This document shows, one piece after another, positions 3,735 to 19,885 of a stretch of 64,000 bases of DNA. Position numbers and translations under genes: made by a program. Source of the DNA: an uncultured Pseudomonadota bacterium. Its GTDB lineage: Bacteria > UBA10199 > JADFYH01. Every line of letters begins with the position of its first letter. Position 1 is the first letter of the stretch. Location: NCBI GenBank assembly GCA_964384365.1, contig CAYLKF010000001.1:212079-276078 (forward strand). Direction: 5' to 3'. The notes under the pieces are model-generated. The model saw only the letters and a program-made list of their open reading frames with translations. It ran no database searches and was not told where the DNA came from.

Positions 3735-3823
3735 TACCTCCTCATATCAGGCCCCACCGTTACAAATTCGCCCAAGCTTTCTAAACCTTCTCGAAGATGC
3801 GCGTTTCGCACATGCTCGAAGGT
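3735..3823. repeat. Left direct repeat: orphan copy of the last ~29 codons plus stop of the ABM-family gene at 11537..11818
   Basis: Base-by-base alignment of 3735..3823 with 11538..11626 gives 86/89 identical (mismatches at 3740, 3770, 3796). The minus-strand reading encodes ...FEHVRNAHLREGLESLGEFVTVGPDMRR-stop, but stops lie immediately upstream, so it is a gene fragment. Confidence 0.85.
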
Positions 3824-3860: not shown

Positions 3861-6800
3861 CTAATCTAATTTTTGGGTCAATTCACCTGCAATCATCTCC
3901 GCCTGCTTCAACACCATCTCCGTTGCCAAAGCTTGCATATCGGGTGGATAGCCATATTGGCGAAGCGTTCTTTTTACAGCAACTTTGAGTTGGGCACGTA
4001 CGCTTTCTTTGATAGTCCAATCAATCGAAGCGTTTTGGCGGATTTTTTCGGTTAAGACTACCGCCAATTCTCGTAATTTATCTTTGCCTAGAAGTTCTCT
4101 TGCGCTTTGGTTATCTGCAACAGCAGTATAAAAAGCGTATTCGTGATCGGAAAGTCCCAAAGTTTTAGGCTCTTCATCGATTGATTTGATATCTTTCGCA
4201 AGCTTGATCAGTTCTTCAATCACTTCTGCAGCCGTGATAATTTTACTGTGATAGCGCTTGATGGAATCTTCCAGCATTTCCAAAAGATGTTTGCCTTGGA
4301 TCAAATTTTTCTTCAGTCGTACTTTGATTTCGTCATTCAGAATTTTTTTGAGGGTTTCCAGAGCGATATTCTTGTGCTCCATGTTTTTGATTTCGAGCAA
4401 GAATTCTTCCGATAAAATTGAAATATCGGGTTTCTTAATTCCTGCAGCATCGAACACATCTACTACTTGAGTAGAAACTAGGGCTCGATCAATCAATTGC
4501 CGAATGGTTGTTTCCATTTCTTCATCATTTTTACCGGAGCCCGTGCTGTCAAACTTCACCAATCTCGCTTTCACCGCCTGAAAATAGGCGACTTCCTCTT
4601 TGGCATCCATCGCTTGTTCATGCGGAACAGAAATGGCAAAAGCTTTAGAAAGTGCAGTGACTTCATCAATGAATCGTTTCTTCCCTTTTTCTAAGCCCAA
4701 GATATGCTCTTCCGCAGAAAGGATGAGAGAAAGTTTTTGGGAAGTATTGGCTGAAAAATAATTTTCGTAATTAAAACCGGAAAACATTTGAGAAACCACT
4801 TCGAGCTTTTCCAACAGGAGAGCCACTGCTTTTTCTTGAGTGACTGCTGGATCGCCTTTGCCGCCACTATCCGAATAAAACGAGAGAGCTTTTTTCAAAT
4901 CTGAAGCAATCCCCAGATAATCCACTACCAAACCGCCTTTTTTATCTTTATAAACACGATTCACACGTGCAATTGCCTGCATCAAGTTATGACCTTGCAT
5001 CGGCTTATCAATGTATAAAGTATGCAAACAAGGCGCATCGAAACCGGTCAGCCACATATCCCGCACAATCACCAGCTTTAAAGGATCTTCCGGATTTTTG
5101 AGGCGGGAGGCTAAAGTTCTGCGTTGTTCCTTAGTAGTATGATGTTTGGAAAGTTCAGGGCCATCGCTGGAGGCAGCCGTCATCACTACTTTGATGAAAC
5201 CTTTGGAAAGATCTTCGCTCTGCCATTCAGGCCTCAGTTGAATGATGGCATCGTAAAGAGCCACTGCAATCCGGCGAGACATCGCCACAATCATCCCTTT
5301 GCCTTCAAACACTTCTTGGCGAGCTTCAAAATGGCTCACAATATCTTTGGCAATATTTTGGATTCGATGTTCACTTCCAATTAAAGCTTCCAGTTGCGTC
5401 CATTTCGCTTTGGCTTTTTGCATTTCCGATAAATCTTCATCCGACAATTCTTTATCTAATTCTTCGACCAATTTTTTGCCTTCTGAACTTAATTCCACTT
5501 TGGCAAGACGACTTTCATAATAGATGCGAACCGTCGCTTCATCTTCCACCGCTTTGGCAATATCGTAAATATCGACGTAAGCGCCAAACACTGCTGGCGT
5601 GTTGACATCCGTCCCTTCAATAGGCGTTCCCGTAAATCCTAGATAGGTTGCATTCGGCAAAGCATCGCGCATGTATTTAGCAAAACCATAAACGAGCTTT
5701 TGTCCAATCACATTGCCTTGGGCATCTTTTTCATCCACCGTTTTGGGTTTGAAACCATATTGCGTGCGATGGGCTTCATCGGCAATCACGACGATATTAC
5801 TTCGATTGGAAAGCTCCTCATACACATTACCTTCTTCCGGTTGAAACTTTTGAATGGTGGTAAAAACCACGCCACCCGAGGCTACCTTGAGAAGGTTTTT
5901 CAGATCTTTTCTATCTTTGGCCTGAACAGGATCTTGCCTCAGCAGTTGTTTGGAGGCCGCAAAGGTATCAAACAATTGATCATCCAGATCATTGCGATCG
6001 GTAATCACCAGAATAGTAGGATTATTTAAAGCGCGTACAATCTTGCCCGTCGCAAAAACCATGGTGAGCGACTTGCCAGAACCTTGCGTGTGCCAAACCA
6101 CGCCGCCTTTTCGATCTCCTGTTTCAGAACTCGCGCGCAAAACGGAGTCGACTGCTTTATTGACGGCATAATATTGATGATAGGCCGCCACTTTCTTTAC
6201 TGTTTCAATGCTGGTGATACCTGTTTGAGGATCTTCTTTTTTATGTTTCTCAAAGACGATGAAATTTTGAATCAAATCCAAAAGAGTTTTTTTATTCAGC
6301 ATGCCCTGGATTAAAATTTCCAGCTGGCTCACTAGGTGAGAAGCCTCTGCCTTCCCATCCACCGATTTCCACGCCATGAAGCGACTGTAATCCGAAGAAA
6401 TGGTTCCCGTTTTCGCTTCCAATCCATCAGAAATCACCACGAAGCTGTTGTAGGTGAATAAAGAAGGGATGCTGCTTTTATAGGTTCTGAATTGATCAAA
6501 GGCAGATTTAATCGTGGCGTTTTCATCTGCAGGATTTTTGAGTTCGATCACCATGAGCGGCAAACCATTCACGAAGAGAATAATATCCGGACGTTTGTTC
6601 TGGTTGTTTTCGATGACTGTGAATTGATTGACGATGCAGAAATCATTATTCTCCGGATTTTCGAAATCAATTAGCCATACGTAGTCTCCACGTTCTTCAG
6701 AACCTTCACGTACCAATACATTCACGCCTTCGATGAGCATACGGTGAAAACTTTCGTTATTGTTCATTAATTCGGGAGAATGAATGCGTTGAACTTGCCT

Positions 6801-7013
6801 GAATGCTTCTTCACGCGCTTCTTTTGAAACCTTGGGATTGATGCGATCAATGGCTTCTTTGAGTTTATCGATTAAGAGAACGTCCTCAAAATTCGAACGC
6901 AGTGGATTTTTTTCTCCTGCCGCAATTTCAGGACCGTAGAAGTATTGATAACCTTGCTTTTGCAAAAGCTGGATGGAGAATTCTTCGATGTGGGATTCGG
7001 TGAGGAGAGTCAT
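3861..7013 (-). CDS. hsdR: Type I restriction enzyme R subunit (HsdR)
   Basis: Walker A TQGSGKS and DEAH box VVIADEAHR. The track start at 7028 is a TTG; I prefer ATG at 7013..7011, which overlaps the upstream gene's TGA stop (ATGA) and has a G-rich stretch about 7 nt upstream. Confidence 0.9.
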   Translation of the reverse strand: MTLLTESHIEEFSIQLLQKQGYQYFYGPEIAAGEKNPLRSNFEDVLLIDKLKEAIDRINPKVSKEAREEAFRQVQRIHSPELMNNNESFHRMLIEGVNVLVREGSEERGDYVWLIDFENPENNDFCIVNQFTVIENNQNKRPDIILFVNGLPLMVIELKNPADENATIKSAFDQFRTYKSSIPSLFTYNSFVVISDGLEAKTGTISSDYSRFMAWKSVDGKAEASHLVSQLEILIQGMLNKKTLLDLIQNFIVFEKHKKEDPQTGITSIETVKKVAAYHQYYAVNKAVDSVLRASSETGDRKGGVVWHTQGSGKSLTMVFATGKIVRALNNPTILVITDRNDLDDQLFDTFAASKQLLRQDPVQAKDRKDLKNLLKVASGGVVFTTIQKFQPEEGNVYEELSNRSNIVVIADEAHRTQYGFKPKTVDEKDAQGNVIGQKLVYGFAKYMRDALPNATYLGFTGTPIEGTDVNTPAVFGAYVDIYDIAKAVEDEATVRIYYESRLAKVELSSEGKKLVEELDKELSDEDLSEMQKAKAKWTQLEALIGSEHRIQNIAKDIVSHFEARQEVFEGKGMIVAMSRRIAVALYDAIIQLRPEWQSEDLSKGFIKVVMTAASSDGPELSKHHTTKEQRRTLASRLKNPEDPLKLVIVRDMWLTGFDAPCLHTLYIDKPMQGHNLMQAIARVNRVYKDKKGGLVVDYLGIASDLKKALSFYSDSGGKGDPAVTQEKAVALLLEKLEVVSQMFSGFNYENYFSANTSQKLSLILSAEEHILGLEKGKKRFIDEVTALSKAFAISVPHEQAMDAKEEVAYFQAVKARLVKFDSTGSGKNDEEMETTIRQLIDRALVSTQVVDVFDAAGIKKPDISILSEEFLLEIKNMEHKNIALETLKKILNDEIKVRLKKNLIQGKHLLEMLEDSIKRYHSKIITAAEVIEELIKLAKDIKSIDEEPKTLGLSDHEYAFYTAVADNQSARELLGKDKLRELAVVLTEKIRQNASIDWTIKESVRAQLKVAVKRTLRQYGYPPDMQALATEMVLKQAEMIAGELTQKLD

Positions 7014-8053
7014 AACTCTACCCCCCAAATATTTACTGATTTCGCATCAAACAAATTAACCTTACATTTGAATGATGAGTGAATGGATTTTATATGTTTT
7101 ATATCTTTTTCAGAATAAACACCTATATAAACACTCCATAATTTGGAATCTATATCTTGTTTAGATGCTTTGTTGATAGCATCAATAATATGTTTGTCGT
7201 AATCTCCGAAATTAAAACCAAAAGTGATTAATGAACCTTCTATTGAAGAAAGTTTTTTGTAACAAAAATCAAGATATTGATTGTGTAAAATATGAGAAAG
7301 TTTTTGTTCTCCATCTCCTGCTGTTACAAATACAGGGTATTCCTTATTTTCCATTCTTGTTTTAATATTTTTTAACAAATAATTTCCGTCGTAGATTTCC
7401 TTACTTATTGCAGTGCCACTATCAAATAAATGTAATGCACCGTGTAAGTAATGCACATGTTGTTCCGTACGATTATTACCCCATTCGAGATCGCCGGCTT
7501 CAGCCTCGGCATTTTTATCATCTTCATCATTTATGAAATATTCTCTACCGAAACCGTCTATGATGTTGGCAATACCATCTTGCGAACTCATCAAAACCCA
7601 ATAAAGCAACAAATCGTAATTTGTTGTAAATACATGGCCGTCATTATCAAGATACTCCTTAAGAAATGTTGCACAAAGATTTATTCTATTTTGAGGAATT
7701 TTAAAAATATGCTCAGGATGCAACTGAGAAACGGCATCAATTAAATTTTTCTTTAATGACTCGCTAGCGGCCTTTATTGTACTAGCTAAATTTTGATCTT
7801 TAGAAAACTCAGTGGCGAGTGCGCAAAACACGTCAAGCTCCCTCATGATTTGTTCAAAATTGTATGTTTTAATTATATCAAAAAGTTTCTTTAAAAACTT
7901 ATTATCCGTTTTAAGAAGAAAATCACTTAGGGCGTTATACGAAAATATGGCTTTATCATAAGCCATACTGAAACCATTACCTAACAGTAAGTGTTTAGCT
8001 CTTTTTTTCTTATTCAAATAATTAATAATGTCAGAATACTTTTTAAGCTCCAT
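7010..8053 (-). CDS. SIR2-like (ThsA / SIR2_2 / DUF4917-type) putative NAD+-consuming effector
   Basis: Four motifs in the canonical order: Gly-rich loop LLLGNGFSMAY, FTTNYDLL, HYLHGALH, ITFGFNFGDYD, matching the ThsA SIR2 motifs GAGxS / TTNYD / HGD / GFSFxD as I recall them. Sampled lines give about 25-33% G+C, lower than hsdR. Confidence 0.6.
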   Translation of the reverse strand: MELKKYSDIINYLNKKKRAKHLLLGNGFSMAYDKAIFSYNALSDFLLKTDNKFLKKLFDIIKTYNFEQIMRELDVFCALATEFSKDQNLASTIKAASESLKKNLIDAVSQLHPEHIFKIPQNRINLCATFLKEYLDNDGHVFTTNYDLLLYWVLMSSQDGIANIIDGFGREYFINDEDDKNAEAEAGDLEWGNNRTEQHVHYLHGALHLFDSGTAISKEIYDGNYLLKNIKTRMENKEYPVFVTAGDGEQKLSHILHNQYLDFCYKKLSSIEGSLITFGFNFGDYDKHIIDAINKASKQDIDSKLWSVYIGVYSEKDIKHIKSIHSSFKCKVNLFDAKSVNIWGVEL

Positions 8054-8054
8054 G

Positions 8055-8702
8055 TTATTCTGTCTCTACATTAAACATCTTACATTCAACCGCATAAGCT
8101 CGTGGATCTATGTTATAAAGTATTTCACTAGCTAGATACGAATATTCTCCCATTACAAACTCACCAAATGAATCATCCCAAAATTCATTAAAATCTGAAT
8201 TGTCTTGGTATTCAGAAATTTTCTCCTCAGTTTGTGCTACAGTTGTAAGGGGTGATGATGTTTCAAATCCTCTAATTAATAAAGAAGCCACAATTTCAGT
8301 GGAATCGATCAAAAATTCTTTTGCTAAATGATCAATTTTATTGTTCCTATTTTTTAATTCCTCAATAGTCATACCATGAGAAGTTGAGCCAATATCGTTA
8401 CGTAAATTTCCCATCTGCTGGCCAATAGTTGCCAGAGATCTTGAAATTTGATTGACGAGTTCTTCGCTTTTATAACCAATGGCTATAAAAGCACTTTTCA
8501 AAACCGCATTCATATTTGAGGTGTTTGGCAAGGTAACATCTTTAATTTTACAAATTTCCTTCCCTATCGTTTCAAGAAGAGCTTTTGCATTTTCAAGTGA
8601 TAAGCTGAAATCAGTTTCAGCATATGCTTCTATGCGGCTTACAAAAACCTCAATATCTTTCCATCTCCCGTGTTGCTCTATGACAGCTTTTAGTTTCTGC
8701 AT
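8055..8702 (-). CDS. Hypothetical 215-aa protein, partner of the SIR2-like gene; acidic/aromatic C-terminal tail
   Basis: ATG overlaps the hsdS stop (TAATG); its stop lies 1 nt before the SIR2-like ATG. No catalytic motif recognised. C-terminus EYQDNSDFNEFWDDSFGEFVMGEY is acidic and aromatic-rich. Confidence 0.6.
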   Translation of the reverse strand: MQKLKAVIEQHGRWKDIEVFVSRIEAYAETDFSLSLENAKALLETIGKEICKIKDVTLPNTSNMNAVLKSAFIAIGYKSEELVNQISRSLATIGQQMGNLRNDIGSTSHGMTIEELKNRNNKIDHLAKEFLIDSTEIVASLLIRGFETSSPLTTVAQTEEKISEYQDNSDFNEFWDDSFGEFVMGEYSYLASEILYNIDPRAYAVECKMFNVETE

Positions 8703-9928
8703 TAGAGTGCTTCCTCTTCATACTTCACCCTCACCTCACCACTCATCAGTTTAGGTAAAAGAGTGTCGCGAAGTTTTTCTAAATTTCTTATTTGTTGGTG
8801 ATTCGAATCAATTTTTTCCCAGGCATTTTCGGTAAAATTACAAAAAGTATGTAGGATCTCTTTTGAAGGTAATTGAAACTCAACAGTTTCAATGTCAGAT
8901 GGTTTTAGAGATGGATAAGTAGAAGTTGAAGCTTCAGCAATTGTGCTTAGATATTCCGTCATTTCATTCTGAGTAAGGAGATAATAAATAAAATGCGGAT
9001 TAATAGCACTGCAAGTGAGTACGCAAAAACCAGTTGAAACAACTAAGTTATTAGGCGGATTTTTAATAAATCCATAATGTTTATGATTAGGCCTGACTGT
9101 TGAAACGATAATATCATTATGTTGAACTAACCTTTTGGCCCGACTAGGAGAATCTTTTAGGGAATAAATTTCAAATTTTTCAATTTTCCCTTCTGTAATA
9201 GAACCAGTATCCAAATATTTAATAATTTCGTAAGGATGATCCGTCCTGAGTGTAGAAATATTAGTTTTTGCAATGTCACCTATAGTAATATTTGGCCAAC
9301 TTGGATTAGCCTCCTCCACAAACCACTGCCGAAAAAGTGTTTCAGCAATAGCTTCTAGGGTTTTGTTTTGGCGGTGGAGGAGGTCAATTTTGTCATCCAG
9401 GCTGGAGAGAATTTCGGCGATGGCTTTTTGTTCGGGGAGAGGTGGTAAAAAAAATGCATAATTTTTTATTGCCGTTGGAGAAGTATGTTTTATTGATGTT
9501 CCAGATGATGCGCTGACAATATATTGTTGATACTCTCTAGTTCGCATTAACCAATAAATAAATTCTCTATCCGTATTATTATTATTATTATTATTTTTAA
9601 ATTTAACTAAACCAACTCGTTGATTATGGAGAAAAATGACACCTTCCATATAAGGTATCTTTGCTGTATACCCTAAAGTATCACCGTCTTTACTTAAATC
9701 GGTCATAGTAACAATAATGTCGTCTGGTGTAAGAATATATTCTTTTGGAAAATCAGAGGATGAAAAATACTTAAACTTATCCTGCTTAAACCCACCCCCA
9801 ATATGAAAGTTTCCAGGGGTAACTAGAATTTTATCTGTTTTTTCTTGAGTTATATATTTTCCCTTAAAAGCATAACCATGCTTTATATCTATGACTTCAC
9901 CTAATGTTGTTTCTTCCCACTCACCCAT
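8702..9928 (-). CDS. hsdS: Type I restriction-modification specificity subunit (HsdS), two target-recognition domains
   Basis: Conserved central region LPPLPEQKAIAEIL...LLHRQN and C-terminal repeat LPSKEIL...LEKLRDTLLPKLMSGEV. Start overlaps the hsdM stop by 8 nt. Confidence 0.9.
   Translation of the reverse strand: MGEWEETTLGEVIDIKHGYAFKGKYITQEKTDKILVTPGNFHIGGGFKQDKFKYFSSSDFPKEYILTPDDIIVTMTDLSKDGDTLGYTAKIPYMEGVIFLHNQRVGLVKFKNNNNNNNTDREFIYWLMRTREYQQYIVSASSGTSIKHTSPTAIKNYAFFLPPLPEQKAIAEILSSLDDKIDLLHRQNKTLEAIAETLFRQWFVEEANPSWPNITIGDIAKTNISTLRTDHPYEIIKYLDTGSITEGKIEKFEIYSLKDSPSRAKRLVQHNDIIVSTVRPNHKHYGFIKNPPNNLVVSTGFCVLTCSAINPHFIYYLLTQNEMTEYLSTIAEASTSTYPSLKPSDIETVEFQLPSKEILHTFCNFTENAWEKIDSNHQQIRNLEKLRDTLLPKLMSGEVRVKYEEEAL
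9577..9597 (-). repeat. (AAT)7 trinucleotide repeat inside hsdS encoding a poly-Asn run
   Basis: Plus strand reads (ATT)x7; minus-strand translation ...KFKNNNNNNNTDREF in the first target-recognition domain. Confidence 0.85.
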
Positions 9929-11438
9929 TCAAAACCACCTTCGCTAAATTCTCTAAAATACGTTCATTGAGCTTAACTTCTTCTTTCATCTGAGCTTCCA
10001 ACTCCGCTTTGAGAACGGTAAAGCGTTCTGCAAAATTGAAATCATCTTCAATATCTTCCAAGCCCACATAGCGGCCTGGGGTCAGCACATAATCCAACTC
10101 CTGCACACGCTGGATGCTAGCTGAATTGCAGAATCCTTTTATGTCTTGATATCCATCGTCTTCCGATCGCCAGTTATGATAAGTTTGAGCAATTTTTTGG
10201 ATGTCTTCGTGAGAAAATTCTTTTGTGCGTCGATTGATGAGATGGCCGAGGTTACGGGCATCGATAAATAGAATTTCTTCCCGGCGATAGGTTTTGCCAC
10301 GTCGCAAAAACCATAAAGAAGCGGGGATTTGCGTATTCAGAAACAATTTGGCGGGCAAGTTAACGATGCAATCCACTAAGCGAGCTTCGATCAGTGCTTT
10401 GCGGATTTCGCCTTCGCCGGAGGATTTAGAAGTAAGCGCCCCTTTCGCCATGACAAAACCGGCATGGCCACTCGGAGATAAATGATAGAGGAAATGTTGA
10501 ATCCAGGCATAGTTGGCATTGCCACTGGGAGGAACGCCATATTTCCAGCGACCATCATTGCGGAGCAAATCACCGCTCCAGTCGCTATCATTAAAGGGAG
10601 GATTCGCGATGATGAAATCAGCTTTTAGATCTTTATGCGTATCGTTAAGAAAAGAACCTTCGTTGTTCCATTTCACTTGTGAGCTATCAATACCACGGAT
10701 GGCAAGATTCATTTTCGCCAAGCGCCAAGTGGTTTGATTGCTTTCTTGACCATAAATGGAAATATCGTTGATGCGGCCTTGTCGAGCTTCCACAAATTTT
10801 TCGGATTGAACAAACATTCCCCCTGAACCGCAGCAGGGGTCAAAGACTCGGCCTTTATAGGGCTCCAACATTTCTACCAGTAATTGCACAATAGAGCGAG
10901 GCGTATAGAACTGTCCCCCTTGTTTACCTTCTGCTAATGCGAATTCACCCAGAAAATATTCAAACACATGCCCCAGTATATCGGCACTGCGGGCTTTACT
11001 TTGTTCAATATCGATATTGCTAAATTCATCGATGAGTTTGCCTAAGTTGGCAGAATCTAAATTTCCTCGGGCAAAAACTTTTGGGAGGACTCCTTTGAGG
11101 GAAGGATTATCGCGCTCGATAGCATCCATTGCAGCATCGATGTCTTTTCCTATCTCTGGCAGCTTGGCCCGTGACTGCAAGTAGTTCCAACGCGCGGAAG
11201 GAGGCACAAAAAAAACATTCTTGGCTTTGTATTCGTCACGATCTTCCGGGTCGGCTCCCGCGAACTCTCCTTCGCCTTTTTTGAGTTGTTCATAAATTTC
11301 TTCAAAGGAACTTGAAATATATTTTAGAAAAACCAACCCCAAGACGACATGCTTGTATTCTGCCGCATCAATGTTTTTGCGAAGTTTATCCGCCGCTTCC
11401 CAAAGTTTTTTTTCTAATGATTCAATTTTTGAAGTCAT
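9921..11438 (-). CDS. hsdM: Type I restriction-modification N6-adenine DNA methyltransferase (HsdM)
   Basis: Motif I DPCCGSGGMF and motif IV FIIANPPFN. ATG at 11438..11436 with AGAGGGAG just upstream. Confidence 0.92.
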   Translation of the reverse strand: MTSKIESLEKKLWEAADKLRKNIDAAEYKHVVLGLVFLKYISSSFEEIYEQLKKGEGEFAGADPEDRDEYKAKNVFFVPPSARWNYLQSRAKLPEIGKDIDAAMDAIERDNPSLKGVLPKVFARGNLDSANLGKLIDEFSNIDIEQSKARSADILGHVFEYFLGEFALAEGKQGGQFYTPRSIVQLLVEMLEPYKGRVFDPCCGSGGMFVQSEKFVEARQGRINDISIYGQESNQTTWRLAKMNLAIRGIDSSQVKWNNEGSFLNDTHKDLKADFIIANPPFNDSDWSGDLLRNDGRWKYGVPPSGNANYAWIQHFLYHLSPSGHAGFVMAKGALTSKSSGEGEIRKALIEARLVDCIVNLPAKLFLNTQIPASLWFLRRGKTYRREEILFIDARNLGHLINRRTKEFSHEDIQKIAQTYHNWRSEDDGYQDIKGFCNSASIQRVQELDYVLTPGRYVGLEDIEDDFNFAERFTVLKAELEAQMKEEVKLNERILENLAKVVLNG

Positions 11439-11536
11439 GCTCCCTCTTTATTAAAAGAAAAATCACTCATTTTTGGAATGAGGAATTTCTACTAAAGCTC
11501 CAAGCTTTGAAAAGAAAGATCTATTTTCTCTGATCA

Positions 11537-11818
11537 CTACCTTCTCATATCAGGCCCCACCGTTACAAATTCACCCAAGCTTTCTAAACCTTCTCGAATA
11601 TGCGCGTTTCGCACATGCTCGAAGGTAACTTGGGCGCCCCACTCTTCGATAAAATTAAACTGATAAGTTTCGCTTGGATTTTGTTGAAATTCAAAACCCA
11701 AACATCCCGCACTTTTTAAAGCCGCAGCAATGGTGATACTCAAAAAATTCTTCATCGCTTCTTCTTGACCCGGCAAGGCTTTATAAAGTGAAATCATCCT
11801 CACAGTTTTACGGCGCAT
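11537..11818 (-). CDS. Antibiotic-biosynthesis-monooxygenase (ABM) family protein
   Basis: About 93 aa with an ABM-like pattern (ISLYKALPGQEEA...GCLGFEF...FIEEWGAQVTFEHVRNAH). The track start is a TTG at 11830; first ATG at 11818 has GGAG 6 nt upstream. Its 3' end is the right direct repeat. Confidence 0.6.
   Translation of the reverse strand: MRRKTVRMISLYKALPGQEEAMKNFLSITIAAALKSAGCLGFEFQQNPSETYQFNFIEEWGAQVTFEHVRNAHIREGLESLGEFVTVGPDMRR
11538..11626. repeat. Right direct repeat (the intact 3' end of the ABM gene)
   Basis: 86/89 identity to 3735..3823. Confidence 0.85.
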
Positions 11819-11850
11819 TTTTTTCTCCAATTTACAAAATTAATTTTGAT

Positions 11851-11882
11851 AAAAAAAGGCCCTACAGAATTTCTGTAGGGCC
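11851..11882 (-). terminator. Intrinsic terminator 3 nt downstream of tRNA-Leu
   Basis: 10-bp perfect stem GGCCCTACAG / CTGTAGGGCC with 5-nt loop; the plus-strand A-run 11851..11857 is the U-tract on the minus strand. Confidence 0.7.
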
Positions 11883-11884
11883 AG

Positions 11885-11970
11885 TGCCCGAGGCCGGAAT
11901 CGAACCGGCACGACCGTTTCCAGTCACAGGATTTTAAGTCCTGTGTGTCTACCAATTCCACCACTCGGGC
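11885..11970 (-). tRNA. tRNA-Leu (anticodon UAA), long variable arm
   Basis: Cloverleaf folded by hand: acceptor GCCCGAG/CTCGGGC, anticodon stem CAGGA/TCCTG with loop CTTAAAA, T-stem GCCGG/CCGGC with loop TTCGATT, discriminator A. Confidence 0.85.
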
Positions 11971-12005
11971 TAGCAGATCATTCGTATTAAACGAATGATC
12001 TGCTA
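11971..12005. repeat. 15-bp perfect-stem hairpin abutting the 5' end of tRNA-Leu
   Basis: TAGCAGATCATTCGT - ATTAA - ACGAATGATCTGCTA. No U-tract, so not a canonical terminator. Confidence 0.7.
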
Positions 12006-12038
12006 GGATTTAGTAACTAGTAATTAGTTTTTAGGGGG

Positions 12039-12404
12039 TCAACTTTTATCTTCTAGATTTTTAATTAATCCGCTAAGCATTTTGGAAATTTCAACACATT
12101 CTTGTCGAAATATTTTATATTGCTCCGACGAAATGGATTGAAGATCCAGTCCAAGTTCTAAAAGGGGCACACACTCATAAGTTGATCCTCTTGCTATAGT
12201 GTAAAAATTTTTCTTTTCTTTTAAAGACTCTCTCCCCCCACCTTCTGCTATGTTTAAAGTAATACTCATCGAAGCCCTGCGAAGTTGATCACACCACGAA
12301 AAATTATTTTTTGAAAATGGGCTTATTACTTTTATTATTTGTTTAGAAAAAACAAGCGCCCTCTGATAAACATGTAACTTTTCAAATGAGAACTGTTCGT
12401 CCAT
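12039..12404 (-). CDS. Four-helix-bundle protein (23S rRNA intervening-sequence protein / Avd-like family)
   Basis: Family-typical pattern LHVYQRALVF...DQLRRASMSITLNIAEGGGRES...FYTIARGSTYEC. Confidence 0.8.
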   Translation of the reverse strand: MDEQFSFEKLHVYQRALVFSKQIIKVISPFSKNNFSWCDQLRRASMSITLNIAEGGGRESLKEKKNFYTIARGSTYECVPLLELGLDLQSISSEQYKIFRQECVEISKMLSGLIKNLEDKS

Positions 12405-12438
12405 ATCCCTATCTACTTAAAACTTAACCCTTAATACT

Positions 12439-12470
12439 AAAAAAACTTCCCCGTTAAGGGGAAGTTTTTT
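12439..12470. terminator. Bidirectional intrinsic terminator immediately downstream of tRNA-Cys
   Basis: 8-bp stem ACTTCCCC / GGGGAAGT, loop GTTAA, A-run on one side and T-run on the other. Confidence 0.7.
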
Positions 12471-12471
12471 A

Positions 12472-12543
<72 letters not shown>

Positions 12544-17845: not shown

Positions 17846-19885
17846 TTATTCCATTTTGAAAACCGGCGTGCGAATCGGCGCAATCGTAAATCCAAAAGTG
17901 AAACTTTGACCCGGTGCCAGATTTTTCTGCCAACTGGGCAACTGCATCGTGGTTTGGTTTGCCGTTTTCGAAATCAAATCGACACTCCACGGCGAAAAAC
18001 CATTTCCTACATTCGCTGAAAATCGCAATCCGCTGAAGGTTGTAGATTTTGTCGTATTCTTGAGCACTGCCTTCATGTTGGCGCCACTCCAAGCTTCTCC
18101 CCTGCCCCACTCAGAATCGATTGAGAGCGTCAAGGTTAAGCCCGACGCAAGATTCTGCACCATTGATCCTTCTGTAGGATTCTGAGGGGGAGAAGGATCC
18201 GGTGCGGGGCTCGGAGCAGGGCTAGGTGGAGCAAGCTCTGTGGCGTTTTGCAAACTGAACGACGGCGTACTCAAAGGAGTCACTGTAAAACCAAAGGTAT
18301 AAGTTTCTCCAGGATCTAACGTGTTGTTGTAAGAGGGTAAACCTACCACGGTTTCAGAAGCGGTTTTCTGAACAGGATCCATACTCCAAATATTAATTCC
18401 ATTTCCTTGATTCGCTTTAATTTGAATTTGATTAAAAGTTTTGGAACTACTCATATTTTTAAGGGTGGCTTTATAAGTCGCTCCACTCCAGGGCTCCCCT
18501 TGGCCCCAAGAATTATCGACAACAAGTTGTAATTGAAAATCGGGCGAGATTGTTTGTGTTAAAGATCCGGGTGTTGGTGCAGGAGCAGGAGCTGGGCTGG
18601 GTGTTGGTGTTGGAGTTGGTGTTGGAGTCGGCGTTGGTGTAGGAGCGGGAGTAGGTGTTGGCGTAGGGCTTGGTGTGGGTGTAGGAGTGGGTGTAGGAGC
18701 AGGTGGAGGATTCCCATACAAAGTTTGAGAAACCAAAGAAGTTAAAGCATATTGATCATCGAGATCAATCGCCCAAATCATGGCTCCGCCCAGTTGTTTA
18801 TTCGTTAAATAATTCAATTTGCGGGTAATCGATTCCGAATCGTCGTAACTAATCCAATTTCCCCTTCCATCGTAGGCATAAGGCGTATCGGTATTTGAGT
18901 CCCACATACGCTGATATTGGCCACTATTCACGAGCTGCTCAATTTCATAATAAGCCATGAAACCGGCTTCTTGAGTGCAAGTGCCTCGCGGCGGATTCGG
19001 ACTCCACGGATTGGTGATCGTACTATTAGGCAGATTGGCCGAAGCGCTGCCAAAGCTTCTTCCATAAAACGGAATTCCTAAAATCAATTTCGACGAAGGC
19101 ACTCCCGCGTTGAGATAAAGATTCACAGTATAATCGATGTAAAAATGCCCATTGGGCACGGAGTCGTGCATCAAGGGCGAGTTGACTCCCGTTTTTGAAT
19201 CCCAACTTCCATGAAAATCGTAAGTCATGAGATTGATAAAATCGAGATAAGGATGAATCAAAGAAAGCTCGTAATTGGCAATGTGCGCTTCGCCCGCAGG
19301 AGCTGCGATTGTAAGCAAAAGCTTTTCTTTTCCGGCAGGAACCCGCTCGGCATCAATGGCTTGCCGAAATTCTTTGAGCAAGGCCGTAAAATTTTTCTTA
19401 TCTTGAGAAGTTCCAGAATGCTCTGCGAATCCGGGGTATTCCCAATCGAGATCAATTCCATCAAATCCGTAAGTTCGGGCATAAGTCATGGCTGAATTAA
19501 TAAAAGTTGCCCGCCGAGCAGAGCTTGAAGCCATCGCAGGAAAGGCATCACTTAAAGTCCAGCCCCCAATTGAAATCAAAGTTTTTAAATGGGGATACTG
19601 TTGTTTGAGGCTATTCAACTGCTCATACAAACCCGGAGAACCGCTGCTGATGTCATTCCACTCAACGGGTTGCACTTGATCACCCGCTCCAATTTTTGCA
19701 AAGGCATAATTGATATGCGTAAAATATTCGGGCCGGACATTGGCAGGAGTGAACTTGCATTGACCCGGCCGGTATTGAGCCCAATTGGTGAAATAGCCAA
19801 CAACTCGTGGAGTGGTATCGGCTCGCACTTCCAGAGAGAAGGCTAAAAGGAGAAATCCCAAAATCAACCGACTCAAGGCTTTCAT
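17846..19885 (-). CDS. Secreted GH18 chitinase with Pro/Thr linkers and two C-terminal CBM2-like modules
   Basis: Signal peptide, catalytic motif [11 protein letters not shown], long PT-repeat linker, two about 100-aa Trp-containing modules ([11 protein letters not shown]... and [11 protein letters not shown]...). Confidence 0.88.

Follow-up and report, generated by a model that had tools for sequence, protein, structure and literature searches.

Repeats in hsdS genes of known Type I systems

Simple sequence repeats (SSRs) whose unit is a multiple of three are very common in hsdS, the specificity gene of Type I systems, and they do not phase-vary (PMC7383803). In the REBASE survey of Atack et al. 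(2019), 9,517 of the 11,383 SSR-bearing hsdS genes carried such an in-frame (n/3) tract (PMC7383803). Frameshifting tracts have also been described, such as AAGAC[n] in hsdS of Fusobacterium nucleatum and Mannheimia haemolytica (PMC7383803). The units of this second type are not multiples of three, so that HsdS is truncated or extended and its specificity or expression is switched.

Only one in-frame repeat is documented to change the specificity of HsdS, the TAEL repeat of EcoR124I and EcoR124II (PMC3874165). This 12-bp unit is present in two copies in the enzyme that recognizes GAA N6 RTCG and in three copies in the one that recognizes GAA N7 RTCG (PMC3874165). It lies in the central coiled coil, as a ruler between the two target-recognition domains (TRDs).

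We analysed a 64-kb stretch of DNA (the window) from an uncultured, poorly sampled lineage, in which an hsdS gene contains seven AAT units. Like the catalogued in-frame SSRs of hsd genes (PMC7383803), this tract is a trinucleotide repeat inside the hsdS open reading frame (ORF) and always keeps the frame. It thus falls in an already described and abundant class. Most members of the class are short (the survey threshold was three units), whereas the tract in the window, with seven perfect units, stands at the long end.

The tract resembles the AAGAC[n] tracts in being a simple repeat in hsdS that is able to slip at replication, but its unit preserves the frame. With TAEL it shares an in-frame tandem-repeat copy number within hsdS. 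On the other hand, it lies in a surface loop of TRD1 and not in the coiled coil. Its unit adds one residue to a low-confidence homopolymer loop without a known allelic series, whereas each TAEL unit adds about one helical turn of four residues.

The hsdS gene and its operon

The following genes, all on the minus strand, make up the operon.

9921..11438, minus strand: hsdM, 505 aa, with domains HsdM_N and N6_Mtase (the latter 8.8e-111); its 3' end and the 5' end of hsdS share 8 nt
8702..9928, minus strand: hsdS, 408 aa, with TRD1 (about residues 1-163), coiled-coil CR1 (164-205), TRD2 (about 206-355) and CR2 (356-396)
8055..8702, minus strand: gene for an Abi_C-domain protein, 215 aa, PF14355 (2.7e-7), between hsdS and hsdR
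7010..8053, minus strand: gene for a DUF4917/SIR2-like protein, 347 aa, PADLOC defence candidate PDC-S21 (1.1e-109), between hsdS and hsdR
3861..7028, minus strand: hsdR, 1055 aa, with HSDR_N, SWI2_SNF2 and T1RH-like_C domains

The HsdS protein matched Pfam Methylase_S (PF01420) in two stretches (9.7e-27) and PADLOC Specificity_I (8e-100), and its sequence also matched the solved HsdS chains 1YF2, 3OKG and 5YBB. An AlphaFold2 model was obtained with a mean pLDDT of 89.8 and a pTM of 0.78. The best Foldseek match of this model was 1YF2 (7e-20), and it also matched the PacII S subunit (7VRU), 1YDX, 5YBB, the EcoKI model 2Y7C and EcoR124I (7BST).

The architecture expected of HsdS was present, with two Methylase_S TRDs parted by two long conserved coiled-coil helices, and hsdM and hsdR were encoded in the same locus. 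By these predicted features, the product of the ORF at 8702..9928 is a canonical HsdS.

The operon order on the minus strand, hsdM-hsdS-[Abi_C-like]-[PDC-S21/SIR2-like]-hsdR, was intact, and the ORFs overlapped or abutted one another. This argued that hsdS is not decaying. The two genes embedded between hsdS and hsdR look like a slot for defence cargo inside the Type I operon; the Abi_C-domain protein had no match in PADLOC.

Position and frame of the AAT tract

The tract and the loop that it encodes were located as follows.

9575..9595, minus strand: (AAT)7 repeat, codons 112-118 (Asn7) of hsdS
9569..9598, minus strand: flexible loop of TRD1, codons 111-120 (KNNNNNNNTD), delimited by the AlphaFold2 model and the loop lengths of homologues

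The repeat is perfect, encodes Asn112-Asn118 and is flanked by the codons AAA (K111) and ACG (T119). On the plus strand the site reads ...CCG TATTATTATTATTATTATTAT TTTTA..., that is ...CCG(TAT)7TTTTA...; the 18-mers that flank the tract are GGTTTAGTTAAATTTAAA ... ACGGATAGAGAATTTATT. Tandem Repeats Finder called 9574-9599 with a period of 3 and 8.7 copies, imperfect ends counted. The sole long ORF over the tract was the minus-strand one of 408 aa. The initial annotation had described a perfect seven-unit trinucleotide repeat encoding Asn7 in hsdS, which agreed with the sequence, the frame and the domain matches. Its coordinates (9577-9597) were off by 2 nt and are corrected here.

An exact search for the tract found one site, against 0.00 expected from 100 dinucleotide-preserving shuffles. 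With Asn making up 6.1% of codons, a run of seven is expected about 7e-5 times per window. The tract is therefore above chance; it is non-random and the product of a process (probably slippage). An SSR scan found it to be the only trinucleotide tract of at least five units within the 64 kb, the runner-up being (CCA)4.

As the unit is 3 nt long and lies inside the ORF, slippage would stay in frame, as first annotated. The accompanying suggestion of phase variation had to be abandoned, since a change in the number of 3-nt units never shifts the frame and ON/OFF switching is thereby ruled out. The survey of hsdS SSRs is in agreement (PMC7383803). The feature that marks SSRs of the ON/OFF type, a unit not divisible by three or an effect on a promoter, was absent at the AAT tract. 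When candidates for phase variation are scored, hsdS SSRs that keep the frame are best left out.

An hsdS shufflon or inverting switch was also considered and rejected: the operon contains one Methylase_S ORF, and no recombinase ORF was present in the 3.7-11.6 kb interval. No significant inverted repeats were found within or around hsdS (the best were 71-79% identical over 24-31 nt).

The loop that carries the Asn run

The tract had been assigned to the first TRD, and the model bore this out, with the run at residues 112-118 and the coiled-coil helix beginning at residue 164. The tract thus lies outside the coiled coil, where the ruler repeat of EcoR124-type enzymes is located.

In the AlphaFold2 model, the run alone among the elements of TRD1 was poorly predicted, with a mean pLDDT of 67 over residues 111-120 and values below 50 at residues 114-116. 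The loop links a beta-strand (105-110) to a helix (121-127), and it sits at the far end of the strand that follows the DNA-reading hairpin (FLHNQR). The matching loop of TRD2, between strand 301-306 and helix 311-318, has only four residues (307-310).

The position of the loop relative to DNA and HsdM was judged by mapping the sequence onto EcoKI and T. tengcongensis HsdS (TTE-HsdS) and their published contact loops. Contacts of TRDs with DNA come mainly from loops (PMC9613975). In the model of the EcoKI methylase, the DNA-proximal segments are residues 83-91, 96-118 and 139-148, and mutations at 91, 95, 105, 107 and 108 cause loss of activity (PMC2647291). When HsdS was aligned with EcoKI hsdS (E. 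coli K-12), N112-N113 stood opposite K115-L116, and N114-N118 were inserted before I117. This places the run at the extreme C-terminal edge of segment 96-118, downstream of the critical residues 105, 107 and 108. These critical residues correspond to the conserved HNQR hairpin of the HsdS in the window.

For TRD1 of TTE-HsdS, the proposed DNA-contact loops are D41-S43, P64-R66, T81-R82, S101-T102 and S141-A144 (PMC3047542). The alignment puts S101-T102 where the strand begins (STGF, the counterpart of HNQR). What corresponds to the Asn loop, about A109-E113, is at the opposite end of that strand and is absent from the proposed contact loops.

HsdM is contacted by a helix-loop in the EcoKI model (N133-A144; PMC2647291) and by N121, E128 and K136 in PacII (PMC9613975). 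The helices that follow the Asn loop lead to this HsdM-contacting helix-loop of EcoKI and PacII.

From this mapping we infer that the Asn loop is peripheral, away from the bases and, probably, from the M interface. The initial annotation had also raised variation in specificity, and this found no support: the loop lies outside the proposed DNA-contact loops, and the in-frame precedent sits in the coiled coil.

Comparison of the loop among homologues

A set of 120 homologous HsdS proteins (48,233 aa) was assembled, and from it 31 TRDs of the same 'LHNQR' type were pulled; this type could be either the N-terminal or the C-terminal TRD of a protein. The distance from G106 to F123 was used to compare the loops. 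It was 11 in 6 of the homologous TRDs, 12 in 18, 13 in 6 and 15 in one, and 16 in the window. None of the 31 carried poly-Asn at the loop. Elsewhere in the 120 proteins, the only homopolymer runs of at least four residues were one VVVV and one KKKKK.

In the alignment, the closest full-length homologues lacked four residues where the run stands: VKFKNNNNNNNTDREF in the window versus VQFLSN----DVDRDF, VQFINN----DANSDF and VQFKNE----NINSEF. With the longest loop and the only poly-Asn in this comparison, the Asn run, as judged by alignment, is specific to this lineage and inserts about four codons into a length-tolerant loop. A similar fixed poly-Asn in homologous HsdS proteins, which had been proposed as a check on the tract, was not found (0/31 TRDs), and the run is therefore not conserved.

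At the DNA level, the homologues read AAA AAT GAA AAT ATT AAC, ATA AAC AAT GAT GCT AAC and TCA AAT GAC GTT GAT AGA at the loop, versus AAA (AAT)7 ACG GAT AGA in the window. The loop in the homologues is thus rich in codons for N, D and S, with short AAT, AAC and GAT seeds. It is plausible that codons like these served as seeds for slippage of AAT.

Base composition and codon use

The GC content was uneven along the operon. It was 30.8% in TRD1 and 32.0% in TRD2 of hsdS, 48% and 40% in the coiled-coil regions, 44% in hsdM, 43% in hsdR, and 31-34% in the two embedded genes (Abi_C and PDC-S21). The host genome is about 43% GC, moderately AT-rich. This mosaic within the operon suggests a donor of higher AT content as the source of the TRDs and of the cargo. 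With TRDs of such an origin, a slippage-prone AAT seed would be unsurprising.

Homopolymeric Asn insertions of low complexity, rich in AAT, occur in proteins of AT-rich DNA. The run described here is like them in consisting of a single AT-rich codon in a surface loop of a conserved fold, attributable to slippage and compositional bias. It differs from those of AT-rich hosts in that the genome is only moderately AT-rich and the bias is local to the TRDs (31-32% GC).

The third-position GC (GC3) of hsdS was 0.25. Outside the tract, AAT and AAC were used 15:3, AAT thus being 83% of Asn codons. The purity of the codons in the tract was considered as proof of its recency and set aside as weak, because with this existing bias seven AAT codons in a row would have a chance of 0.83^7, or about 0.28.

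Slippage and tolerance as the probable origin of the run

We consider it likely that (AAT)7 is a slippage-born, low-complexity insertion that is tolerated in the loop, and that the specificity of HsdS has probably been kept. The hsdS gene would have been acquired horizontally, and AAT would have expanded in frame by replication slippage in a very AT-rich part of it. The expansion would have made one flexible TRD1 loop, exposed to solvent, longer by about four Asn residues.

Since members of the family tolerate loops of various lengths here, a neutral or nearly neutral effect is probable for the insertion, and the predicted Type I enzyme would then probably be functional and keep its specificity. 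Later slippage could add or remove one Asn, and it would change the length of the loop only, the gene never being switched off. The initial annotation had allowed that the tract might be just a low-complexity loop. This alternative is the best supported, by the low pLDDT and the length tolerance of the loop and by an insertion of about four residues that the 31 TRDs lack.

Against neutrality, the perfect, uninterrupted 21-bp repeat is unique in the 64 kb and among the homologues. This suggested that the tract is recent and potentially still mutable. Moreover, EcoKI segment 96-118 formally reaches the run, and the loop precedes the HsdM-contacting helices, so the run may affect DNA binding or the M-S interface. 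On the ordinary reading, the tract is one more slippage-made, low-complexity stretch tolerated in a fast-evolving defence protein, and it matters little. Published rates of trinucleotide slippage within prokaryotic coding sequences were looked for, and nothing usable was found.

Repeat number in available sequences

Among 5.8 billion protein clusters, the exact HsdS was found once (one NCBI contig of 314,704 bp plus a Logan assembly), and the next best was 67% identical. HsdS, HsdM, the Abi_C-like protein and the PDC-S21 protein were all singleton clusters; the exact HsdR sequence was not found in this collection. The sole second copy, the Logan contig from SRR8893623, was 100% identical to 8066-11956 of the window (3,891 bp) across the tract.

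No relatives of HsdS were found in a scan of the GTDB species-representative genomes. A DNA scan of the JGI metagenomes with the pattern flank-N{3,33}-flank gave no matches, the reference allele included. The plasmid and phage collections yielded no allele, just distant matches to conserved regions of HsdS. For AspA (aspartate ammonia-lyase), the best relative was 71% identical and came from an unclassified 'bacterium' metagenome-assembled genome (MAG; STL-UBA2).

These searches bear on the possibility that the tract is a hypermutable, in-frame contingency locus, in which the number of Asn residues would tune DNA recognition by TRD1 or the docking of HsdM and so give graded or altered methylation and restriction, as a 'rheostat'. 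The tract is perfect and, with seven units, exceeds the usual search threshold for SSRs (at least three units, PMC7383803). It lies within a specificity-determining domain whose DNA-contacting residues are mainly in loops (PMC9613975), and its absence from all the homologues makes it recent. A change in the number of in-frame repeats does alter HsdS specificity in EcoR124I/II (PMC3874165).

That precedent, on the other hand, is located in the coiled coil and not in a TRD, and the Asn loop is not among the proposed DNA-contact loops. No length variant turned up in genomes, metagenomes, plasmids or phages, and the sole second copy is identical. Seven trinucleotide units make a short tract. The window has no further long SSR, which sets it apart from organisms dependent on contingency loci. 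We therefore regard a contingency role as improbable.

If the tract did vary and alter the specificity or efficiency of methylation, it would represent a fourth mode of diversification of Type I specificity, by the length of a TRD loop. This mode would be distinct from frameshift, coiled-coil-ruler and recombinational variation of hsdS, and it would be relevant to epigenetic heterogeneity and to the engineering of TRDs.

Other explanations for the tract

The poly-Asn loop might instead be functional, selected and held at seven residues, for instance because it alters a contact with HsdM or HsdR, aids solubility or lets the enzyme escape a DNA-mimic anti-restriction protein. In favour of this, the loop comes before the HsdM-contacting helix-loop of the EcoKI and PacII models, and TRD2 of M. 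jannaschii HsdS is N-rich at the equivalent place (FQKNNDSVNTEF). Yet all 31 homologous TRDs lack the run, and its very low model confidence is consistent with disorder. Its codons are all identical, with no synonymous changes, and so give no sign of age or of purifying selection at the protein level. A fixed function of this kind seems hardly likely.

We think it very improbable that the tract acts as DNA or RNA, for instance by providing the Abi_C, PDC-S21 and hsdR genes with an internal promoter or UP element or through RNA structure. In favour of such a role, the sequence is very AT-rich, and these three genes follow downstream in the same orientation. Nevertheless, neither strand had a sigma-70-like site over the tract, and 2 such sites were present in the region versus 4.7 in shuffles. 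The RNA around the tract was less structured than shuffles (z = +2.08), and the tight packing or overlap of the genes suggested co-transcription.

That the true number of units is lower and the tract an artefact of assembly or sequencing has only the slightest probability, for although the source is MAG-like, from an uncultured organism, and low-complexity DNA is prone to mis-assembly, 21 bp is far below the read length, the independent Logan assembly is identical, the ORF is unbroken and homologues align perfectly with the flanks.

The RM island and its surroundings

Two copies of a direct repeat were found on either side of the operon.

3735..3823, no strand assigned: 89-nt direct repeat, left copy; encodes once more the C-terminal 29 aa of an ABM-like ORF (11537..11830, minus strand)
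11538..11626, no strand assigned: 89-nt direct repeat, right copy; the 3' end of the ORF at 11537..11830 (minus strand)

The two copies are 97% identical and sharp-edged, and they bracket the entire 7.8-kb block from hsdR to hsdM. They look like att-like sequences or a duplication of the 3' end of a target gene from insertion of the RM island. No integrase was found inside the RM block.

The block adjoins genes for tRNA-Leu(taa) and tRNA-Cys(gca) (11884-12543, minus strand), a segment immediately upstream of the island. Between the two tRNA genes is an ORF (12039..12404) for a 121-aa '23S rRNA-intervening sequence protein' (PF05635, 9.8e-30). A perfect 16-nt inverted repeat (11970-11985 and 11991-12006) abuts the tRNA-Leu gene.

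Two loci that encode the closest homologues of HsdS had other cargo in the interval between hsdS and hsdR. At one of them (L083, 5600-8278), an NTase_sub_bind/HepT-like gene lies upstream of a Polbeta-HsdS fusion; there is also an ORF of 223 aa, and hsdR is split by a DDE_3 transposase. The other (L084, 2086-6713) has several ORFs, including those for MC3 and LmuB_C (Lamassu-like) proteins. Across the window and these two loci, the hsdS-hsdR interval behaves as a variable hotspot for cargo.

Taken with the GC mosaic, the 89-nt repeats, the adjacency to tRNA genes and the differing cargo in related loci suggest that the RM block is a mobile, modular defence island, with TRDs recently imported from AT-rich DNA.

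Elsewhere in the window, a degenerate tandem array with periods of 6, 12, 18 and 30 nt (GGTGTT-type) occupies 18569-18710, in a chitinase-like ORF of 679 aa (17846..19885, minus strand). On the minus strand it encodes a linker rich in Pro, Thr and Ala; it is in frame and far longer than the AAT tract. The window also encodes the GspD secretin, AmpG and AddAB, and the organism appears to be a deeply branching Gram-negative.
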